A stretch of 64,000 nucleotides of DNA, taken from the NCBI GenBank assembly GCA_029945195.1, contig GCA_029945195.1_4117.1, one strand, 5' to 3'. This DNA comes from a phage. The number at the start of each line of letters is the position of its first letter. The first letter of the stretch is position 1. A model generated the notes under the pieces. That model ran no database searches. It worked only from the letters and a program-made list of their open reading frames with translations, and had not been told where the DNA came from. Shown piece by piece: positions 4,078 through 63,781 of this stretch. The position numbers and the translations under genes are program-made.

Positions 4078-4854
4078 ATGGCAAATAACATGATTAATAA
4101 ATATGGCGTTCCTTTACCATCGGGGCGTAATCGTTCAATGCTACAACCGAAAGCAAAATACAAGTTTCGTGTTATTGTGTATAATTTCGGTACTGATATA
4201 GATGAACGTGATCACATCGCATTAGATGTTGATAAAATTGATAGACCTACTGTAACATTTAGTACTCATAAACTATATCAATTTACTACTAATACTTCCT
4301 ATATAGGTAGTCATGATTGGGAACCAATTACAATATCTATCCGTGATTCAGTTGGTAATGCATCAGCAAAAGCATTATCACGCCAATTACAAAAACAACT
4401 TGACTTTCAACGCAGAATAACTTCAAGAAGTGACCAAGATTATGGTTCTTATAAATTTGGCTTGGTTATACAGATGTTGAGTGGACGTAACTCAGATGAT
4501 ACACTAGGAAATCTAGGAAGAGATACTCTAGTAGATGCTGCAACTGCTGCAACAAATAATTCTGGCTTAGTAAATGCAGTAGATCAATTTATTGGTGGTT
4601 CTTCATATAACAGTGCTGGTGTTATGGAATACTTTGTTTTAACCGGATGTGTTATTCAAAACATATCATACGATTCATTAGATTATAGCTCAAGTTCTCC
4701 AGTTGAAATGGTAGTGACTATCAAACCAGATAATTGTATACAATTTGATAATATTGAAGAAATGTATAGTACCAGAATTAATTCACTTTTACCTGAAAAT
4801 GTCAATCAAGGTTTAGATATCATTGATCGTGTTTTTGGTAGTGTAGGATTTTAA
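4078..4854 (+). CDS. tail tube protein (paralog 2, with internal insertions)
   Basis: 258 aa; N-terminus M..NKYGVPLPSGRNRSMLQPKAKYKFRVIVYNFGT is collinear with ORF 3296..3982, and the IRDSVGNASAKAL motif is shared by both. Confidence 0.7.
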   Translation: MANNMINKYGVPLPSGRNRSMLQPKAKYKFRVIVYNFGTDIDERDHIALDVDKIDRPTVTFSTHKLYQFTTNTSYIGSHDWEPITISIRDSVGNASAKALSRQLQKQLDFQRRITSRSDQDYGSYKFGLVIQMLSGRNSDDTLGNLGRDTLVDAATAATNNSGLVNAVDQFIGGSSYNSAGVMEYFVLTGCVIQNISYDSLDYSSSSPVEMVVTIKPDNCIQFDNIEEMYSTRINSLLPENVNQGLDIIDRVFGSVGF

Positions 4855-10618: not shown

Positions 10619-11014
10619 ATGCAATATAATTATCGTGAACTAGTTGAAGCGTTAGACGAAATTACCGGAAGAGATGAAGACGAAAGTTTTTCAGTTGAAG
10701 TTGAATCCGATGTTGTAGCAGTTGATGTTCTTAAGGATATTACCAAATGTCTTATTGATATTGTTGATAAGATTAAATCTGGTGAAGACCAAAAAGAAAT
10801 TGTAGATAAACTACAAAAAGCCTGTGACATTTTGTCTGACATTCGATATAATGATGAAAGTACTGAAGTTGCTGATGAAGAAGTGTTGGAAGCCATTGCA
10901 GGTTGTTTTGGAACTGAAGGTATGGGACCATCAATTGACAAAGAAGGCGTACAACACTATAATGAGCCTGGTGCACCATCTTATGCTGCACGTCAAGGTT
11001 TTGTTGGAGACTAA
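10619..11014 (+). CDS. hypothetical acidic protein
   Basis: 131 aa; GGAG RBS; translationally coupled to the upstream ORF. Confidence 0.5.
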   Translation: MQYNYRELVEALDEITGRDEDESFSVEVESDVVAVDVLKDITKCLIDIVDKIKSGEDQKEIVDKLQKACDILSDIRYNDESTEVADEEVLEAIAGCFGTEGMGPSIDKEGVQHYNEPGAPSYAARQGFVGD

Positions 11015-11017
11015 TAT

Positions 11018-11398
11018 ATGTTTCCAGAACCATCACATAACAGTACTGAATATCAAAATAATGTACTTTCCAAAGTTAGGGAAGTACATGAATCAGATTC
11101 AGAAATAACAGACCGTATGCTTCTGATGTCAATTTTTGAAAATTTCAGAACTGGCGGTGGTTTACGTCTTAGCAAGTTTGGGTATGGAATTTGTAAAGAA
11201 AATAATCTTTATGAATTTACCAAAATCCCCTTGCAAAGAGAATTTAAAAGTTCTATAATGTTTACATCACTTGACAGAATATGTACTTCACCTTATTATG
11301 TTGAAGGTCAGTACATATATCTGACAGATGCAATGATAATAACTGAATTAACATTGTGTTGTGATGATTTTAAACAGTTATTTTCTATTCATATGTAA
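11018..11398 (+). CDS. hypothetical protein
   Basis: 126 aa; GGAG RBS; last gene before the promoter-rich spacer. Confidence 0.45.
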   Translation: MFPEPSHNSTEYQNNVLSKVREVHESDSEITDRMLLMSIFENFRTGGGLRLSKFGYGICKENNLYEFTKIPLQREFKSSIMFTSLDRICTSPYYVEGQYIYLTDAMIITELTLCCDDFKQLFSIHM

Positions 11399-11421
11399 GA
11401 AAAATGAATTAAAAAAAAATG

Positions 11422-11449
11422 TTGACAAGATAGAATGATGTGATACAAT
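11422..11449 (+). promoter_or_regulatory. sigma70-type promoter P1 (TTGACA-N16-TACAAT, extended -10)
   Basis: TTGACA at 11422-11427, 16-nt spacer ending in gatgtga, TACAAT at 11444-11449; A-tract upstream. Confidence 0.6.
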
Positions 11450-11515
11450 AAGCATCAGACATAAAGTTTTCAAGCGACACAAGATGTGAGTTTGAAAAAA
11501 AAAGAAAAAAAGTGA

Positions 11516-11543
11516 TTGACAAGTTGAAACGATGTGATATAAT
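11516..11543 (+). promoter_or_regulatory. sigma70-type promoter P2 (TTGACA-N16-TATAAT, extended -10)
   Basis: Perfect -35 and -10 hexamers with 16-nt spacer and TGn extended -10; same gatgtgata.aat architecture as P1; A-rich UP-like tract upstream. Confidence 0.65.
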
Positions 11544-11604
11544 GTTCACATCAAGACAGCAAAGAGATTTACCTTTTAAACACACGGATGATTCATGAAG
11601 TAAC

Positions 11605-11645
11605 AAAGGAACTGATAAGTTAAATTATTTTAACACAGTTCCTTT
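11605..11645 (+). promoter_or_regulatory. leader hairpin in 5' UTR of the AAA+ ATPase gene
   Basis: Perfect 10-bp inverted repeat aaaggaactg / cagttccttt with a 21-nt loop, followed by a U-rich run; a 12-codon mini-ORF (11588-11623) overlaps the left arm. Confidence 0.4.
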
Positions 11646-11712
11646 ACTTTTGCCCACGGATTGGCTATAATAGAAACTTAAACGATTTTATCCAACAAAA
11701 GGAAATATATAC

Positions 11713-13038
11713 ATGACTACTCAAAACGATATCCTGAACGTTAAACTGACTCCAAAGAAAGCTAAAGAAGCAATGGCACTAGCTGACATGATTCAAGATA
11801 GCCTGATGATTTGGGGTAGCCCAGGTATCGGTAAGTCTGCAATCGCTCGTCAATACGCTGATGAAAATTACCCACTGCGTAAAGATAACGTAGCTAAAAT
11901 CGAGTTCATGAAACAACAAATCGAAGCTGACCCTGAAAATGCTGATCAGCTACGCCGTGAACTGGCTGCATTTGAAGCAAAACTAATCGACCAAGATACT
12001 AACTTTATCGATTTCCGTTTGTCTCAAATCGAACCAAGTGACCTTCGCGGTATTCCAGTACCAGAGAAGCTTTTCCGTAAAACTGACGGTTCTCTTCTGA
12101 AAGAATCTGAGCTTGCCGAAGCAAAAGATTATGTAGCTGAAACTGCGGTAGTATGGGCTGCACCTAAAGTTCTGAAATTGTCCGAAGATTGGAAAGGTGT
12201 TATTCTGTTTGACGAAATTAACTCTGCAATGCCTATTGTTCAGGCAGCGTCTTATCAGCTAATCCTCGACCGTTGTGTTGGTGAGATGAAGCTACCTAAG
12301 ACTGCACTGATTCTTGCAGCAGGTAACCGTGAAACTGATGGTGGTGTAACTTTCTCTCTTGCTACACCACTGCGTGACCGTATGACTCACATTGAGATGA
12401 TTCCTTATCATCAAGATTGGATTAACGATTATGCGATTGCAAAACGTTTGAACCCAGCAACTGTTGCGTTCATCAACAACACTGGTTCTAAGTACTTTAA
12501 CACACTTAGTCCACAAGATCCTTCTCACAGTGGTGGTACTTCTCCACGTTCATGGGAAGCAGTAGCACGCTACGAAGATCTCAAGAAAACTAAGACAATT
12601 GATAAAGAAGTGTTCCGTGCAATGATTGCTGGTCGTGTTGGTGAAGGTGTTGCAACTGAATACATTGAGTACGTTGAGAACGTTGCTAAACTACCAGATA
12701 CTATGTCTATTCTGTCTGGTGAAATCAAAGAAATCGACGCAACGCTGGATATTTCTGCGAACTACTTTATCACTCTGAACTTGGTTTATAAAATTATCGA
12801 CCTGTTCAATGAGAAGCAAGAACAACGTCTACCAGTGGAAGAATGGGGTAAACTGTGTAACAACTTCATCACCTTCCTAGACCATAACTTCTCTGCAACT
12901 CAAGCAGAACTGGCAGTACTGGCAATTCGTACCATCACGCTTCATAAGGTTGCGATTTCCATTAAAGATGTACCAGCGTTTAAAGATTTCATCGCTAAGT
13001 ACTCTGATCTTGTACGTAAAGCACGCTCTCTTGGCTAA
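11713..13038 (+). CDS. MoxR-like AAA+ ATPase
   Basis: 441 aa; Walker A GSPGIGKS, Walker B ILFDEIN, MoxR-type core followed by a C-terminal extension; codon usage differs from neighbours (CTG/CGT/GGT-rich). Confidence 0.8.
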   Translation: MTTQNDILNVKLTPKKAKEAMALADMIQDSLMIWGSPGIGKSAIARQYADENYPLRKDNVAKIEFMKQQIEADPENADQLRRELAAFEAKLIDQDTNFIDFRLSQIEPSDLRGIPVPEKLFRKTDGSLLKESELAEAKDYVAETAVVWAAPKVLKLSEDWKGVILFDEINSAMPIVQAASYQLILDRCVGEMKLPKTALILAAGNRETDGGVTFSLATPLRDRMTHIEMIPYHQDWINDYAIAKRLNPATVAFINNTGSKYFNTLSPQDPSHSGGTSPRSWEAVARYEDLKKTKTIDKEVFRAMIAGRVGEGVATEYIEYVENVAKLPDTMSILSGEIKEIDATLDISANYFITLNLVYKIIDLFNEKQEQRLPVEEWGKLCNNFITFLDHNFSATQAELAVLAIRTITLHKVAISIKDVPAFKDFIAKYSDLVRKARSLG

Positions 13039-13059
13039 TTAACAAAGAGTTGTTGACAA

Positions 13060-13090
13060 GAAGGATGCCTAATGGTATCCTTCTTTTATC
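13060..13090 (+). terminator. rho-independent terminator after the AAA+ ATPase gene
   Basis: 10-bp stem gaaggatgcc / ggtatccttc (one G-U), UAAU loop, then ttttatc. Confidence 0.6.
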
Positions 13091-13112
13091 TTAACTAAAC
13101 GAGGAAATATAC

Positions 13113-14537
13113 ATGTCAGATAACAAATCTACTTCAAGATTCAATGAAGTATCTCCGGCACTCCAGAAAGAATGTCAAGAACGTCTGGTTCTGGCTCGTA
13201 CATCTTTGATGTTAACTGCACCATTCTTTGGTGTACTCGCTTCACGTTTACGTCCAGTTCCTAATAATACATGGTGTCGTACTCTAGCAGTGGATGGTAA
13301 ACATCTATTCTACAACGTAGAATTTGTAATGGGCATTCAAGACCCATCTAAAAAGAAAGAATATGAAGAAGCTATTCGTGAAAAGCACCCTGAAGTTACA
13401 GACGAACAATTAAAAGAAATGACTGAAGGTTTGACTGATGAAAACCTTGTTGCTGTAATTTGTCATGAAATTCTACACTGTGCTTACGATCACTTCCTTC
13501 GTCGTGGTATGCGTGATCCACAACGTTATAACCGTGCAGCGGATTATGCCATTAACCAAATCATCGTTCGTGAGAAAATTGGGAAAATCCAAAGTTCATG
13601 GTTGTATGATAAAAAATATGAAGGCATGACCGCAGAAGAGATTTACATTCTTCTTGAAGAAGAAGAACAAAAAGAAGATGGTGAAGGTGAAGGTCAACCA
13701 CAAAGTGGCGGCGGTGAAGGTGAAGGTAAAAATCGCGGTACTTTTGGCGATATTAAAGATGGTAAGGGTAAACCAAAAGGTACTACCATTGACCAGCATG
13801 ACGTTCCACAAGAAGGTCAAGAGGGTGGTTCAAGTGAACAGCAAAAACGTGATTACATGGATGATTTCAAAACAGCAATGATGAATGCTGCTCGTGCAGG
13901 TGGTACACCAGCAGAAATCGCTCGTATGATTAACAACTTTAAAGAACCAAAGATTGACTGGCGTTCAAAACTTCAACGTACACTTCGTAGTTGGTTGAAG
14001 TCTGATGCAACATATCAAAATCCGAATCGTCGTTCTTGGGGTGCAGGTTTTGGTTCTAATGGCTCATTCTATGGTAATCCAATTTACCCAGGGATGAAAC
14101 CAGATGATGATATTGATATTGCGATTGCACTAGATGCTTCTGGGTCTATTTCTGAAGATATGCTTCGTGATTTCATTAGTGAAGTTCTTGGCATCACTAA
14201 ACAATTCAAACAGTTTAAGATTCGTATCATGACTTTTGATACTGAAGTTTATACTGTAAAGGATTACAAAACTGGCGAAGAACGTAAGATTCTGGAATAT
14301 CCAGTAAAAGGTGGTGGTGGTACTGACTTTGAAGCAGTATGGGTTCATATGAAGAACGACAACTATAAGCCTAAACAGCTTGTAATGTTTACTGATGGTG
14401 AACCGTGGCAGTCATGGGGTGATCCAAACTACTGTAAAACACTGTTCGTGATTCACAGTAACCCAAATAAAGTTGCACCATTTGGTGAGACTGTACACTA
14501 CGAATATGAAGCTGATAAAAAGCGTCAACGTAGTTAA
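13113..14537 (+). CDS. VWA-domain protein with N-terminal HExxH metallopeptidase-like domain
   Basis: 474 aa; HEILHCAYDH zincin-like motif, acidic/Gly-rich linker, C-terminal VWA domain with MIDAS-like DASGS and GGGGTD; architecture resembles the partners usually paired with MoxR ATPases. Confidence 0.75.
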   Translation: MSDNKSTSRFNEVSPALQKECQERLVLARTSLMLTAPFFGVLASRLRPVPNNTWCRTLAVDGKHLFYNVEFVMGIQDPSKKKEYEEAIREKHPEVTDEQLKEMTEGLTDENLVAVICHEILHCAYDHFLRRGMRDPQRYNRAADYAINQIIVREKIGKIQSSWLYDKKYEGMTAEEIYILLEEEEQKEDGEGEGQPQSGGGEGEGKNRGTFGDIKDGKGKPKGTTIDQHDVPQEGQEGGSSEQQKRDYMDDFKTAMMNAARAGGTPAEIARMINNFKEPKIDWRSKLQRTLRSWLKSDATYQNPNRRSWGAGFGSNGSFYGNPIYPGMKPDDDIDIAIALDASGSISEDMLRDFISEVLGITKQFKQFKIRIMTFDTEVYTVKDYKTGEERKILEYPVKGGGGTDFEAVWVHMKNDNYKPKQLVMFTDGEPWQSWGDPNYCKTLFVIHSNPNKVAPFGETVHYEYEADKKRQRS

Positions 14538-14549
14538 GTACTAAATAAT

Positions 14550-14580
14550 GAGAACGGAAAATTCCGTTCTCTTCTTTTAT
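14550..14580 (+). terminator. rho-independent terminator
   Basis: gagaacgg-aaaatt-ccgttctc hairpin followed by ttcttttat. Confidence 0.65.
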
Positions 14581-14584
14581 AAGT

Positions 14585-14612
14585 GGGACAACTTATAAAA
14601 ATATGATATAAT
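14585..14612 (+). promoter_or_regulatory. sigma70-type promoter (GGGACA-N16-TATAAT, extended -10)
   Basis: -10 TATAAT at 14607-14612 preceded by TGa; weaker -35 at 14585-14590. Confidence 0.5.
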
Positions 14613-14646
14613 AGTTAATGTACCAATATACATGGAGAGTATTAAA

Positions 14647-14925
14647 ATGGAACAAGAAAATAATCAAATTCAACTAACCCTTCTAGACCTAATCAATGCT
14701 GCAAAAATCATGGAAGCTGCTGTTGCACGAAACACCTTTAAAGTTGAAGAACTTGTTGAGGTTGCTCCAGTTGTATCTAAATTTGTTTCTTTTGCAAATG
14801 TAGCTCTTGAAGATATTAAAGCACAAGAAGATGCAGCTAAAGAAGAAGCTGAATCACAAGAAGATGCAGCTAAAGAAGAAGCTGAATCACAAGATAGTGA
14901 AACTCAAGAAGATAAAGGAGAATAA
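14647..14925 (+). CDS. small acidic protein with 11-aa tandem repeat
   Basis: ORF track starts at 14632, but the ATG at 14647 has a GGAGAG RBS 7 nt upstream; contains duplicated SQEDAAKEEAE. Confidence 0.5.
   Translation: MEQENNQIQLTLLDLINAAKIMEAAVARNTFKVEELVEVAPVVSKFVSFANVALEDIKAQEDAAKEEAESQEDAAKEEAESQDSETQEDKGE
14822..14894 (+). repeat. 33-bp direct tandem repeat (2 copies plus partial) inside the small ORF
   Basis: cacaagaagatgcagctaaagaagaagctgaat repeated exactly twice then a truncated copy; in frame. Confidence 0.85.
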
Positions 14926-35619: not shown

Positions 35620-35647
35620 TAGACAAACCGTAAGAATGTGATATAAT
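35620..35647 (+). promoter_or_regulatory. sigma70-type promoter (TAGACA-N16-TATAAT, extended -10) upstream of the Clp-like ATPase gene
   Basis: Same gaatgtgatataat -10 context as the promoters at 11422 and 11516. Confidence 0.55.
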
Positions 35648-63292: not shown

Positions 63293-63320
63293 GAGACAAC
63301 TTTAAAGTTTGTGCTATAAT
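63293..63320 (+). promoter_or_regulatory. sigma70-type promoter (GAGACA-N16-TATAAT, extended -10) with no downstream ORF
   Basis: -10 TATAAT at 63315-63320 preceded by TGc; AT-rich UP-like tract upstream; nearest downstream ORF of 60 aa or more is absent. Confidence 0.5.
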
Positions 63321-63326
63321 GTTTGT

Positions 63327-63781
63327 TGTAGTAATGACAATCCTGTTGAATGCAGAAATGCATATAAATTAGAACCTGATCCTATCGAAAATGTAGATGG
63401 CAGATGAGCAGTTCAACAGTGCGATGAGCAAAAGAAACCCGTTAGATGTGGGCATAGTTTGAACCCCTCACGGCAATGCGGCTCAATAAAGAACTCCGAT
63501 AAGCATACAGAGAGTTCCTCGATAGACATATAAGGATCGCACCTTACCAGATTTGCTAAGGGAGTTTATTAAGTGATTTTAATAAACAGCCTGAAGTTTG
63601 ATTGTATAGACTTTCAGGTGAGTGTCAGGATGATTAAGACTGACGACCGTTGCACATGACTGCGATAGAGAGAAACAGAGCAACCCGCTTTCGTTCTTAA
63701 TATATTTTTAAGAAATTCGCAATACAATAAATGCTGAAACCATCAGCGTCAAGAAATAGAGACTTCATTGTCTCTTTTTTA
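63327..63781 (+). ncRNA. candidate non-coding RNA of unknown class (~450 nt) bounded by promoter and terminator
   Basis: No ORF of 60 aa or more on either strand; GC content locally higher than the flanks; ends at hairpin agagac-ttcatt-gtctct plus T6 (63758-63780); no tRNA cloverleaf recognised by eye. Confidence 0.3.

Follow-up and report, generated by a model that had tools for sequence, protein, structure and literature searches.

We analysed 64,000 nucleotides (nt) of phage DNA (assembly GCA_029945195.1, contig GCA_029945195.1_4117.1; hereafter the window) and in particular the 314-bp spacer at 11399–11712, which separates a block of virion genes from the gene of a MoxR-type ATPase. The phage was an Asteriusvirus jumbo coliphage, with bases 11000–13100 being 99.7–99.8% identical to PBECO4, 121Q, G17, phAPEC6 and others. 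On the 5′ side of the spacer lay a run of plus-strand genes, annotated as virion structural genes in 121Q (gp558–561), with the small gp562 after them. This block's last gene had its stop codon at 11396–11398, and the spacer began immediately after it. The ATPase gene on the 3′ side formed a pair with the gene of a metallopeptidase-VWA protein. Its product had 441 amino acids; some records name it MoxR-like, and Pfam gave only weak AAA matches.

The spacer carried two tandem promoter sequences of the sigma70 type (P1 and P2), a terminator-like hairpin (T1) and two GGA elements flanking T1, namely box 1 and the loop of a small hairpin, SL2. It ended with the ribosome-binding site of the ATPase gene (Table 1); AAGGAAAT-type motifs were the enriched ribosome-binding signal in this phage. 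For comparison, we aligned the orthologous spacers of 21 alignable phages and viral contigs (ATPase identity 54–100%) and read those of EJP2 and XaC1 separately. Genome-wide scans were run on a 350-kb twin genome (OR845138.1).

A promoter followed directly after the gp562 homologue in all relatives examined (the 21 leaders, EJP2 and XaC1). The order promoter, T1, ATPase gene was kept in the 21 leaders, even where ATPase identity fell to 54%, and Xanthomonas phage XaC1 had it too, with TGAAACG followed by T1 and then by the ATPase gene. A more distant ATPase homologue, from Vibrio phage 2.275.O, had another leader, with T1 and SL2 both absent. This 250-bp leader (L041 690–880) contained two copies of a ~33-nt repeat (TGTGTTATAACAATATGTAAGCAGTTAAGCGCA), each followed by a short palindrome.

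Table 1 Features of the spacer and of the two genes that follow it (positions in the window).
Feature	Position	Strand	Remarks
A-rich, UP-element-like tract 5′ of P1	11399..11419	+	17 A in the 25 nt preceding the −35 hexamer
Promoter P1	11422..11449	+	−35 TTGACA 11422–27, 16-nt spacer, TG 11441–42, −10 TACAAT 11444–49; predicted start near 11456
A-rich, UP-element-like tract 5′ of P2	11495..11511	+	16 A in the 25 nt preceding the −35 hexamer
Promoter P2	11516..11543	+	−35 TTGACA 11516–21, 16-nt spacer, TG 11535–36, −10 TATAAT 11538–43; predicted start near 11550
CCUUUU, possible anti-Shine-Dalgarno	11572..11577	+	can pair with AAAAGG 11697–11702
GGA box 1 (ACGGAUG)	11584..11590	+	15 nt 5′ of T1
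Mini open reading frame	11588..11623	+	11 codons plus stop, from ATG 11588 to TAA; overlaps the T1 5′ arm; judged not functional
T1, intrinsic-terminator-like hairpin	11605..11652	+	outer stem 11605–14/11636–45, inner helix GUUAAA/UUUAAC, tail ACUUUUG 11646–52
Candidate promoter P3	11643..11671	+	TTTACT-N17-TATAAT; 10/12 match; 3′ of T1, overlaps the T1 tail and SL2
SL2, small hairpin	11652..11665	+	GCC-CACGGAUU-GGC, GGA 11658–60 in the loop; directly 3′ of the T1 U-tract
Shine-Dalgarno and start codon of the ATPase gene	11699..11715	+	AAGGA 11699–11703, ATG 11713–15
AAA+ (MoxR-like) ATPase gene	11713..13038	+	121Q gp563 homologue; first of the gene pair
DUF2201_N/DUF2201 metallopeptidase-VWA protein gene	13113–14537		second of the pair, with the ATPase gene

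Conserved hairpins in the ATPase leader

T1 had the make-up of an intrinsic terminator, a stable G + C-containing stem-loop followed by a U-rich tract. It combined a perfect 10-bp outer repeat with a 6-bp inner helix (−15.2 kcal/mol, z = −5.0), and its tail, UUUACUUUUG, had 7 U in 10 positions including the last stem bases. The fold of the whole 176-nt leader had a z of −2.5. A preliminary description of the window had pointed to a structured leader with a perfect 10-bp inverted repeat (11605–11645) and a U-rich run, overlapped by a mini open reading frame (mini-ORF), and all of these were found. T1 lay ~55 nt 3′ of the P2 start, and there was no other terminator-like site between 9000 and T1. 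In the GenBank record of G17, T1 already carries an ARNOLD terminator annotation.

All 21 aligned leaders had T1, as a hairpin 3′ of the promoter with a pyrimidine tail ending in U4–6, and so did EJP2 and XaC1, relatives outside the alignment. The tail was CUUUUUU in GAP32 and CBB. The stem read AAAGGAACUG in Asteriusvirus, AGGACUG in Alcyoneusvirus, and AAGGCACUG, AAGACACUG, AAAGCACUGA or AAAGCACUGG in the other groups.

In SL2, the GGA of the loop was invariant (21/21 leaders), the loop always being (A/U/G)(C/U/A)GGA(U/A), and its stems of 2–7 bp varied by lineage yet paired (GCC/GGC, GCCAA/UUGGU, UGCCA/UGGUA, GCUU/AAGC, GCUUA/UGAGC, GCUCA/UGAGU, CAAA/UUUG and UCAGA/UCUGA). The column pair 90–99, for example, was AU, CG, UA and UG across the alignment. 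The stem enclosing this GGA averaged 4.8 bp, compared with 2.8 bp at 4357 background genomic GGA sites, 11% of which reached 5 bp. The background replaced a first shuffle test of SL2, which was uninformative because shuffled flanks keep their complementary composition.

We tested the pairs of T1 and SL2 together for covariation in a MAFFT alignment of the 21 leaders (A1), with 500 shuffles and slid-column controls; the sequences are related and not independent. In A1 85.4% of the cells were paired, compared with 76.1% in the shuffles, and changes on both sides of a pair were found in 33 cells, compared with 12.9; none of the 500 shuffles reached either value. Moving the 3′ partners by 1–3 columns reduced the paired cells to 19–51% in A1, and to 16–51% over both alignments when a model-based realignment was included. 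The realignment agreed with A1, the two together giving 85–87% paired cells vs 76–77% in shuffles, and 33–35 both-side cells vs 13. T1 alone had 11 column pairs, five of them with changes on both sides, and 88.6% of its cells were paired. Covariation was seen in both T1 and SL2.

The region was a single-copy element. With its covariance model, exactly one copy was detected both in the window and in the complete twin genome (87 bits); the other hits were generic terminators of ≤33 bits. Of 40 loci from a 16-mer scan of IMG/VR, 36 were new, and none of the 36 matched the model. In Rfam 15, no family reached its gathering threshold anywhere in the window, and 11380–11760 gave only chance-level hits (≤23 bits, with E up to 10).

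Box 1 had the form A(C/U/A)GGA(U/A) in 20/21 leaders, 6–15 nt 5′ of T1. It was mostly unpaired or in a small loop in the predicted folds, including that of the predicted terminated RNA. In the window it read ACACACGGAUGA, which by eye matched 9 of the 12 positions of the CsrA consensus. Another GGA overlaps the Shine-Dalgarno sequence (11701), 43 nt from that of SL2 (11658). The minimum-energy fold contained the pairing of CCUUUU with AAAAGG, as did the RNAalifold consensus for Asteriusvirus and Alcyoneusvirus. Two other pairings, of the T1 pyrimidine tail with the Shine-Dalgarno sequence and of CCUUUU with the T1 5′ arm, were judged by eye to be too weak or not conserved and were discarded.

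The leader of EJP2 (L010 1037–1354) differed in its order: an extended −10 promoter, T1, an inserted A-rich tract with a TTGACA-N17-TATAAT promoter, the GGA hairpin and the ATPase gene. The inserted consensus promoter, between T1 and SL2, had a P2-like CACAUCAAGAC start. From this position, SL2 would stay with the mRNA leader, and T1 would be a conventional upstream terminator.

Promoters of the spacer and promoter classes of the phage

P1 matched the sigma70 hexamers at 11 of 12 positions and P2 at all 12, both with a 16-bp spacer and with TG one base 5′ of the −10 hexamer. Tandem promoters ~95 bp apart with a shared extended −10 had been described here before, and this holds: the two began 94 bp apart and the common sequence was GATGTGATA(C/T)AAT, the extended −10 being TGATACAAT in P1 and TGATATAAT in P2. 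Loose matching to the consensus (≤1 mismatch; 10 hits in the window vs 6.2 expected) was uninformative, because the DNA is AT-rich. The exact pattern TTGACA-N13-TGnTAnAAT, by comparison, had only P1 and P2 as sites in the window, vs 0.03 expected from shuffles, and the twin genome had only one further site with TTGACA, a 16-nt spacer and TGnTAnAAT. The A content upstream of P1 and P2 (16–17 A per 25 nt) was among the highest of 108 sigma70-like sites; the UP-element assignment is one of composition only.

P1 was a diverged tandem copy of P2, forming a 49-nt direct repeat with 73% identity at 94-nt spacing. Both were kept in six Asteriusvirus lineages, and the −10 of P1 was TATAAT in the other five. 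The position of P2 was that of the single promoter in other genera. At the ATPase locus this promoter was TGAAACG-N13-TGGTATAAT in the group of Mimasvirus, Eneladusvirus, Serratia phage BF and Erwinia phages, TGGGACA-N..-TGATATAAT in the Salmonella phage Munch group, and TTGACA-N..-TGATATAAT in Alcyoneusvirus (RaK2, Muenster) and Asteriusvirus. In CBB, GAP32 and relatives, the TGA in TGAAACG was the stop codon of the upstream gene, so that the −35 overlapped the stop. The leader start, (U)AAGA(C/G)A, was conserved among the relatives, which argues that P2 is the counterpart of the ancestral promoter of the RaK2-like phages; P1 is most probably a later tandem copy.

The candidate P3 had a −10 that was invariant in the six Asteriusvirus lineages. 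In JNE01 and Hallingskeid the −10 read TGGTATAAT, and P3 was absent in the Munch, GAP32 and CBB groups. The late-promoter motif ATAAATA, strongly enriched 5′ of genes in this phage, did not occur between T1 and the ATPase ATG. Two inverted repeats were also seen around P1 and P2. One, CACA-AGA-TGTG at 11478–11488, lies between the promoters and has the form TCACA-N3-TGTGA in 4/5 other Asteriusvirus lineages. The other, GATGTGA-N8-TCACATC at 11531–11553, flanks the P2 −10 on both sides. They could be operators or coincidence.

To place P1 and P2 among the promoters of the phage, we defined promoter classes by a genome-wide scan of the twin genome and scored sites with class matrices. The early-type class E had the form TTGACA-N9-AGTACTG-TATAAT, followed by (A)GTTTACATCAA (...ACATCAA), with 11 strict sites. 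These were all intergenic, all on the plus strand and clustered at ~30–50 kb and 318–349 kb of OR845138.1 (L033, L039). The invariant AGTACTG right before the −10 is an unusual feature. Class M had the form G(G/A)GACA-N13-TG(A/C)TATAAT, with 14 strict and ~30 relaxed sites, all intergenic, all on the plus strand and 14–200 nt 5′ of genes. Three class M sites were found in the window (14585, 58592 and 63293) vs 0.00 expected.

The −35 of class M, TGRRAC(A/G) at 17 nt 5′ of TATAAT, was present at these three sites and not in P1 and P2, which have TTGACA. The other class M feature, an extended −10 TG(A/C)TATAAT with a 16-nt spacer in the TTGACA register, was present in both. With the class M matrix, P1 and P2 scored 8–9 bits (members: mean 36, minimum 27), and with the class E matrix 0–8 bits (member mean 49). 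Judged by these scores, they are hybrids that fit neither class, with a class E-like consensus −35 (and in P2 also the ACATCAA start region) and the class M-like TGATATAAT extended −10.

The preliminary description had seen the architecture of P1 and P2 again at 35620, 14585 and 63293 and had merged all of them into one promoter class. The 16-nt spacer and TGnTATAAT do recur there. The −35 boxes do not, being TAGACA, GGGACA and GAGACA, respectively, in place of TTGACA, and the scan separated class E, class M (to which 14585 and 63293 belong) and the hybrid P1/P2. The 35620 site was a near relative; the gene that follows it, described earlier as Clp-like, was indeed ClpB/ClpA-like.

Two of the class M sites had noteworthy surroundings. 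The promoter at 63293–63320 (GAGACA-N13-TGCTATAAT) was followed by ~450 nt that were free of ORFs and raised in G + C. The ORF-free stretch ended in a clean terminator, AGAGAC-uucauu-GUCUCU-UUUUU, at 63758–63780, the whole region with the promoter spanning 63293–63780. The stretch had no tRNA, and Rfam returned nothing for it with E values of up to 1; we consider it a promising candidate for a large non-coding RNA. No tRNA was found in the window, nor downstream of the 63293 promoter. At 14550–14612, a terminator (14550–14571) was followed by the promoter at 14585, whose −35 GGGACA was centred in a 7-bp inverted repeat, TATAAGT-GGGACA-ACTTATA. Further on, the small ORF 14632–14925 held two identical copies, 33 nt apart, of the 18-nt hairpin-like CAGCTTCTTCTTTAGCTG (14834–14884, minus strand). 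The doubling is explained by a tandem repeat within this ORF.

Possible control of the ATPase operon

We propose that the spacer is a compound control region, made up of P1 and P2, a leaky promoter-proximal terminator (T1) and a site for a GGA-recognising protein on the read-through mRNA, and give this reading a probability of about 0.5. The host sigma70 holoenzyme would most likely start transcription from both P1 and P2. In PA5oct, a relative, transcription is dependent on the host RNA polymerase, and the promoters are TTGAC/TATAATA (PMC7318152). As a conserved intrinsic terminator and leaky promoter-proximal stop, T1 would both attenuate and insulate. It would end read-through from the upstream virion genes, and would also end part of the P1 and P2 transcripts, P2 then yielding a leader RNA of ~100 nt and P1 one of ~195 nt. 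The fraction reading through would be the ATPase–VWA message, carrying SL2 and, in Asteriusvirus, also the possible anti-Shine-Dalgarno/Shine-Dalgarno pairing. More speculatively, SL2, this pairing and box 1 would, taken together, most likely be where an RNA-binding protein specific for GGA attaches and controls how the ATPase message is translated or how stable it is. The host CsrA would be the obvious candidate for such a GGA-binder; for a phage-encoded CsrA or Hfq, a tblastn search of the twin genome yielded nothing above noise (E ≥ 0.8). A narrower version, with box 1 and SL2 flanking T1 as a riboregulator tied to the host Csr system, seems distinctly doubtful to us. CsrA would there set termination, stability or translation of ATPase/VWA, and/or the terminated leaders would soak up CsrA.

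The pair of genes also seems to have an internal attenuator. Between the ATPase and DUF2201/VWA genes, at 13053–13085, we observed a 12-bp hairpin with a U-tail (AAGAAGGAUGCC-UAAU-GGUAUCCUUCUU-UUAUC) and a TTGACA immediately 5′ of it. In Muenster and Munch, terminators are annotated at the same place, between the ATPase and the next gene.

Several observations weigh against the compound control region. P3 lies 3′ of T1 and could drive the ATPase gene without read-through. The U-tract of T1 is interrupted (UUUACUUUUG). SL2 has a stem of no more than 3 bp in the lineage to which the window belongs, and of 2 bp in ph0011. CCUUUU and AAAAGG are invariant and give no covariation for or against their pairing. 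The linear distance from box 1 to SL2, 72 nt, is beyond the published bridging range of 10–63 nt. XaC1 lacks both GGA elements though it keeps T1, and the GGA overlapping the Shine-Dalgarno sequence is not kept in the GAP32, CBB and Yen9-04 groups. GGA-loop hairpins are not enriched in the other leaders of the phage (23% vs 25% genome-wide). Lastly, our literature search on Asteriusvirus and RaK2-like phages found no transcription-start, RNA-seq or 3′-end data.

T1 might also be a plain leaky terminator of the upstream virion operon, with no regulated attenuation, the ATPase being expressed by read-through or from P3. The promoter would then lie 5′ of T1 only because the ancestral −35 overlaps the preceding stop codon, as the TGA contained in TGAAACG suggests for CBB, GAP32 and relatives. 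In keeping with this, T1 is the first terminator-like site past the virion-gene block, the consensus promoter of EJP2 lies 3′ of T1, in the conventional order, and the terminators after the ATPase gene in Muenster and Munch, with a similar hairpin here at 13058–13085, make leaky terminators look routine in this operon. However, the T1 stem (AAGGCACUG and its variants) is more conserved than a generic terminator needs, across ATPases only 54–60% identical, and the promoter-before-terminator order has survived the growth of the spacer to 300 bp and the duplication of the promoter. The GGA-loop hairpin right after T1 would also be left unexplained, and we regard this simple explanation as unlikely. 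Another alternative was considered as well: the unit from promoter to T1 could be a small RNA (sRNA) gene derived from the untranslated 5′ region (5′UTR), yielding an abundant RNA (~100 nt from P2, 195 nt from P1) that acts in trans on host or phage targets, e.g., by sequestering a protein that binds GGA. Two promoters that are among the strongest possible lead straight into a terminator, and in the terminated RNA, as predicted, box 1 mostly stays unpaired. The giant phages 201phi2-1 and phiKZ have mapped 5′UTR sRNAs made by premature termination, one of them conserved across genera, and the predicted lengths of ~100 and 195 nt would fit the definition of a stop within 250 nt of the start (PMC11512511). 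Against an sRNA speak the variable distance from start to T1 (~12 nt in EJP2 to ~100 nt in Muenster), the lack of any candidate seed conserved between genera beyond (U)AAGA(C/G)A and box 1, and the lack of an Rfam match; moreover, the best-conserved GGA element, SL2, lies past the termination point and so outside the sRNA. We consider such a gene quite improbable.

Control at the level of DNA, with the ACGGAT direct repeats and the inverted repeats TGTGA-N8-TCACA (P2 −10) and CACA-N3-TGTG (11478–11488) as operators, is very improbable. Two direct copies of ACGGAT do flank T1, and the 7-bp GATGTGA/TCACATC brackets the P2 −10. But the spacing between the GGA boxes varies widely (~50 to 72 nt), the inverted repeat at the P2 −10 is lost outside the closest relatives of the window, and the pairing of SL2 and T1 is kept by compensatory changes, which argues for an RNA structure. 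The preliminary description had suggested attenuation or a site for an RNA-binding regulator. The hairpin part of that suggestion stands, being conserved with compensatory changes; the mini-ORF as the attenuation device does not. In a leader-peptide mechanism, translation of the 11 codons would decide whether T1 forms, and the mini-ORF does exist and overlap the T1 5′ arm. It has no Shine-Dalgarno sequence, however, and is down to three codons in A4 (ATG ATT CAC TGA) and Muenster (ATG AAT TAC TAA) with T1 intact; in other genera it is absent and T1 is kept. No antiterminator helix appeared in the leader folds (minimum-energy and RNAalifold). On these grounds, we rejected trp-type attenuation, to which we give hardly any credence. 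A 27-codon ORF in the CBB leader, read by eye from the first ATGGAT onward, was likewise dropped, not being kept in GAP32.

Should the compound control region turn out to attenuate in a regulated way or to be targeted by CsrA, a large virulent phage would be reading the physiological state of its host. Under the Csr version, one operon would be tied to the global post-transcriptional regulator of the host throughout a whole clade of enterobacterial jumbo phages. If neither is confirmed, the locus would be an ordinary leaky terminator in a phage operon.

Relation to known systems

The locus is a promoter-proximal terminator/leader element in a phage operon and not a new kind of system, and what we say of its transcription starts, termination and protein binding is predicted from sequence. 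Earlier descriptions of this phage group already include sigma70-like promoters, −35 boxes specific to a class and predicted terminators, T1 itself being annotated in one record. What appears to be new is P1/P2 as a hybrid, duplicated form of the ancestral promoter, and T1 with the SL2/GGA leader as an RNA motif that covaries, occurs as a single copy across the clade and is absent from Rfam. For annotation, a gene pair common to all RaK2-like jumbo phages thereby gains a concrete regulatory layout that is conserved. The analysis also shows that promoter predictions in RaK2-like genomes fall into at least three sequence classes, and P1/P2 seem to be among the few sites at which the phage-specific extended −10 is joined to consensus elements of the host type.

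The mapped sRNAs of 201phi2-1 and phiKZ (PMC11512511) resemble the ATPase leader in having a terminator right 3′ of the start, in a jumbo-phage 5′UTR and at a position conserved before homologous genes across genera. Those phages, however, have no relationship to this one and transcribe with RNA polymerases of their own. The RNAs there were experimentally mapped, ours being predicted from sequence, and the downstream gene there encodes a tail protein, in contrast to the MoxR-type ATPase. As in intrinsic terminators that serve as promoter-proximal attenuators or insulators, T1 is a stable stem-loop with a U-rich tail between a promoter and the first gene. It differs from them in that we detected neither an alternative antiterminator structure nor a leader peptide or ligand-binding domain at T1, and that its stem sequence is unusually conserved, its termination being a prediction.

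CsrA sites have a GGA in the loop of a short hairpin, and two sites can be bridged over 10–63 nt (PMC7652899); typically, one of the sites overlaps the Shine-Dalgarno sequence. The CsrA/RsmA leaders of glgC, flhDC and pgaA, with GGA in loops of 3–6 bp hairpins, are similar to the ATPase leader in this respect. The loops here, A(C/U)GGA(U/A), are near the consensus RUACARGGAUGU obtained by SELEX, there are several GGA sites per leader, and the distance from SL2 to the Shine-Dalgarno sequence falls inside the bridging range (PMC7652899). On the other hand, the base before GGA is a pyrimidine instead of a purine, genera that are more distant do not conserve the GGA at the Shine-Dalgarno sequence, and the phage has neither a CsrA homologue nor a wider set of such hairpins.

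Another close comparison is with the promoters predicted for CBB (Buttimer et al., PMC5259590), which were RpoD-like with a UP element, ‘divergent RpoD-like’ (TGAAACG-N13-TGnTATAAT) and late (ATAAATA); TGAAACG promoters of the divergent type were reported for GAP32 too (PMC5259590). CBB is also reported to have a sigma70-like factor (PMC5259590). The Asteriusvirus divergent box is G(G/A)GACA, not TGAAACG, the early class has its distinctive AGTACTG right before the −10, and P1/P2 join a consensus −35 to the extended −10 of the divergent class, fitting both poorly. The table of divergent-class promoters of CBB (table S6, PMC5259590) has no entry for the ATPase gene (‘Porf_216’). All three classes of CBB and GAP32 were recovered here, including TTGACA promoters with A-rich upstream tracts. 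Class M corresponds to the divergent class, the register of its −35 being shared (TGRRAC at 17 nt 5′ of TATAAT), and the ATPase gene of CBB and that of GAP32 are each preceded by a perfect promoter of the TGAAACG type.

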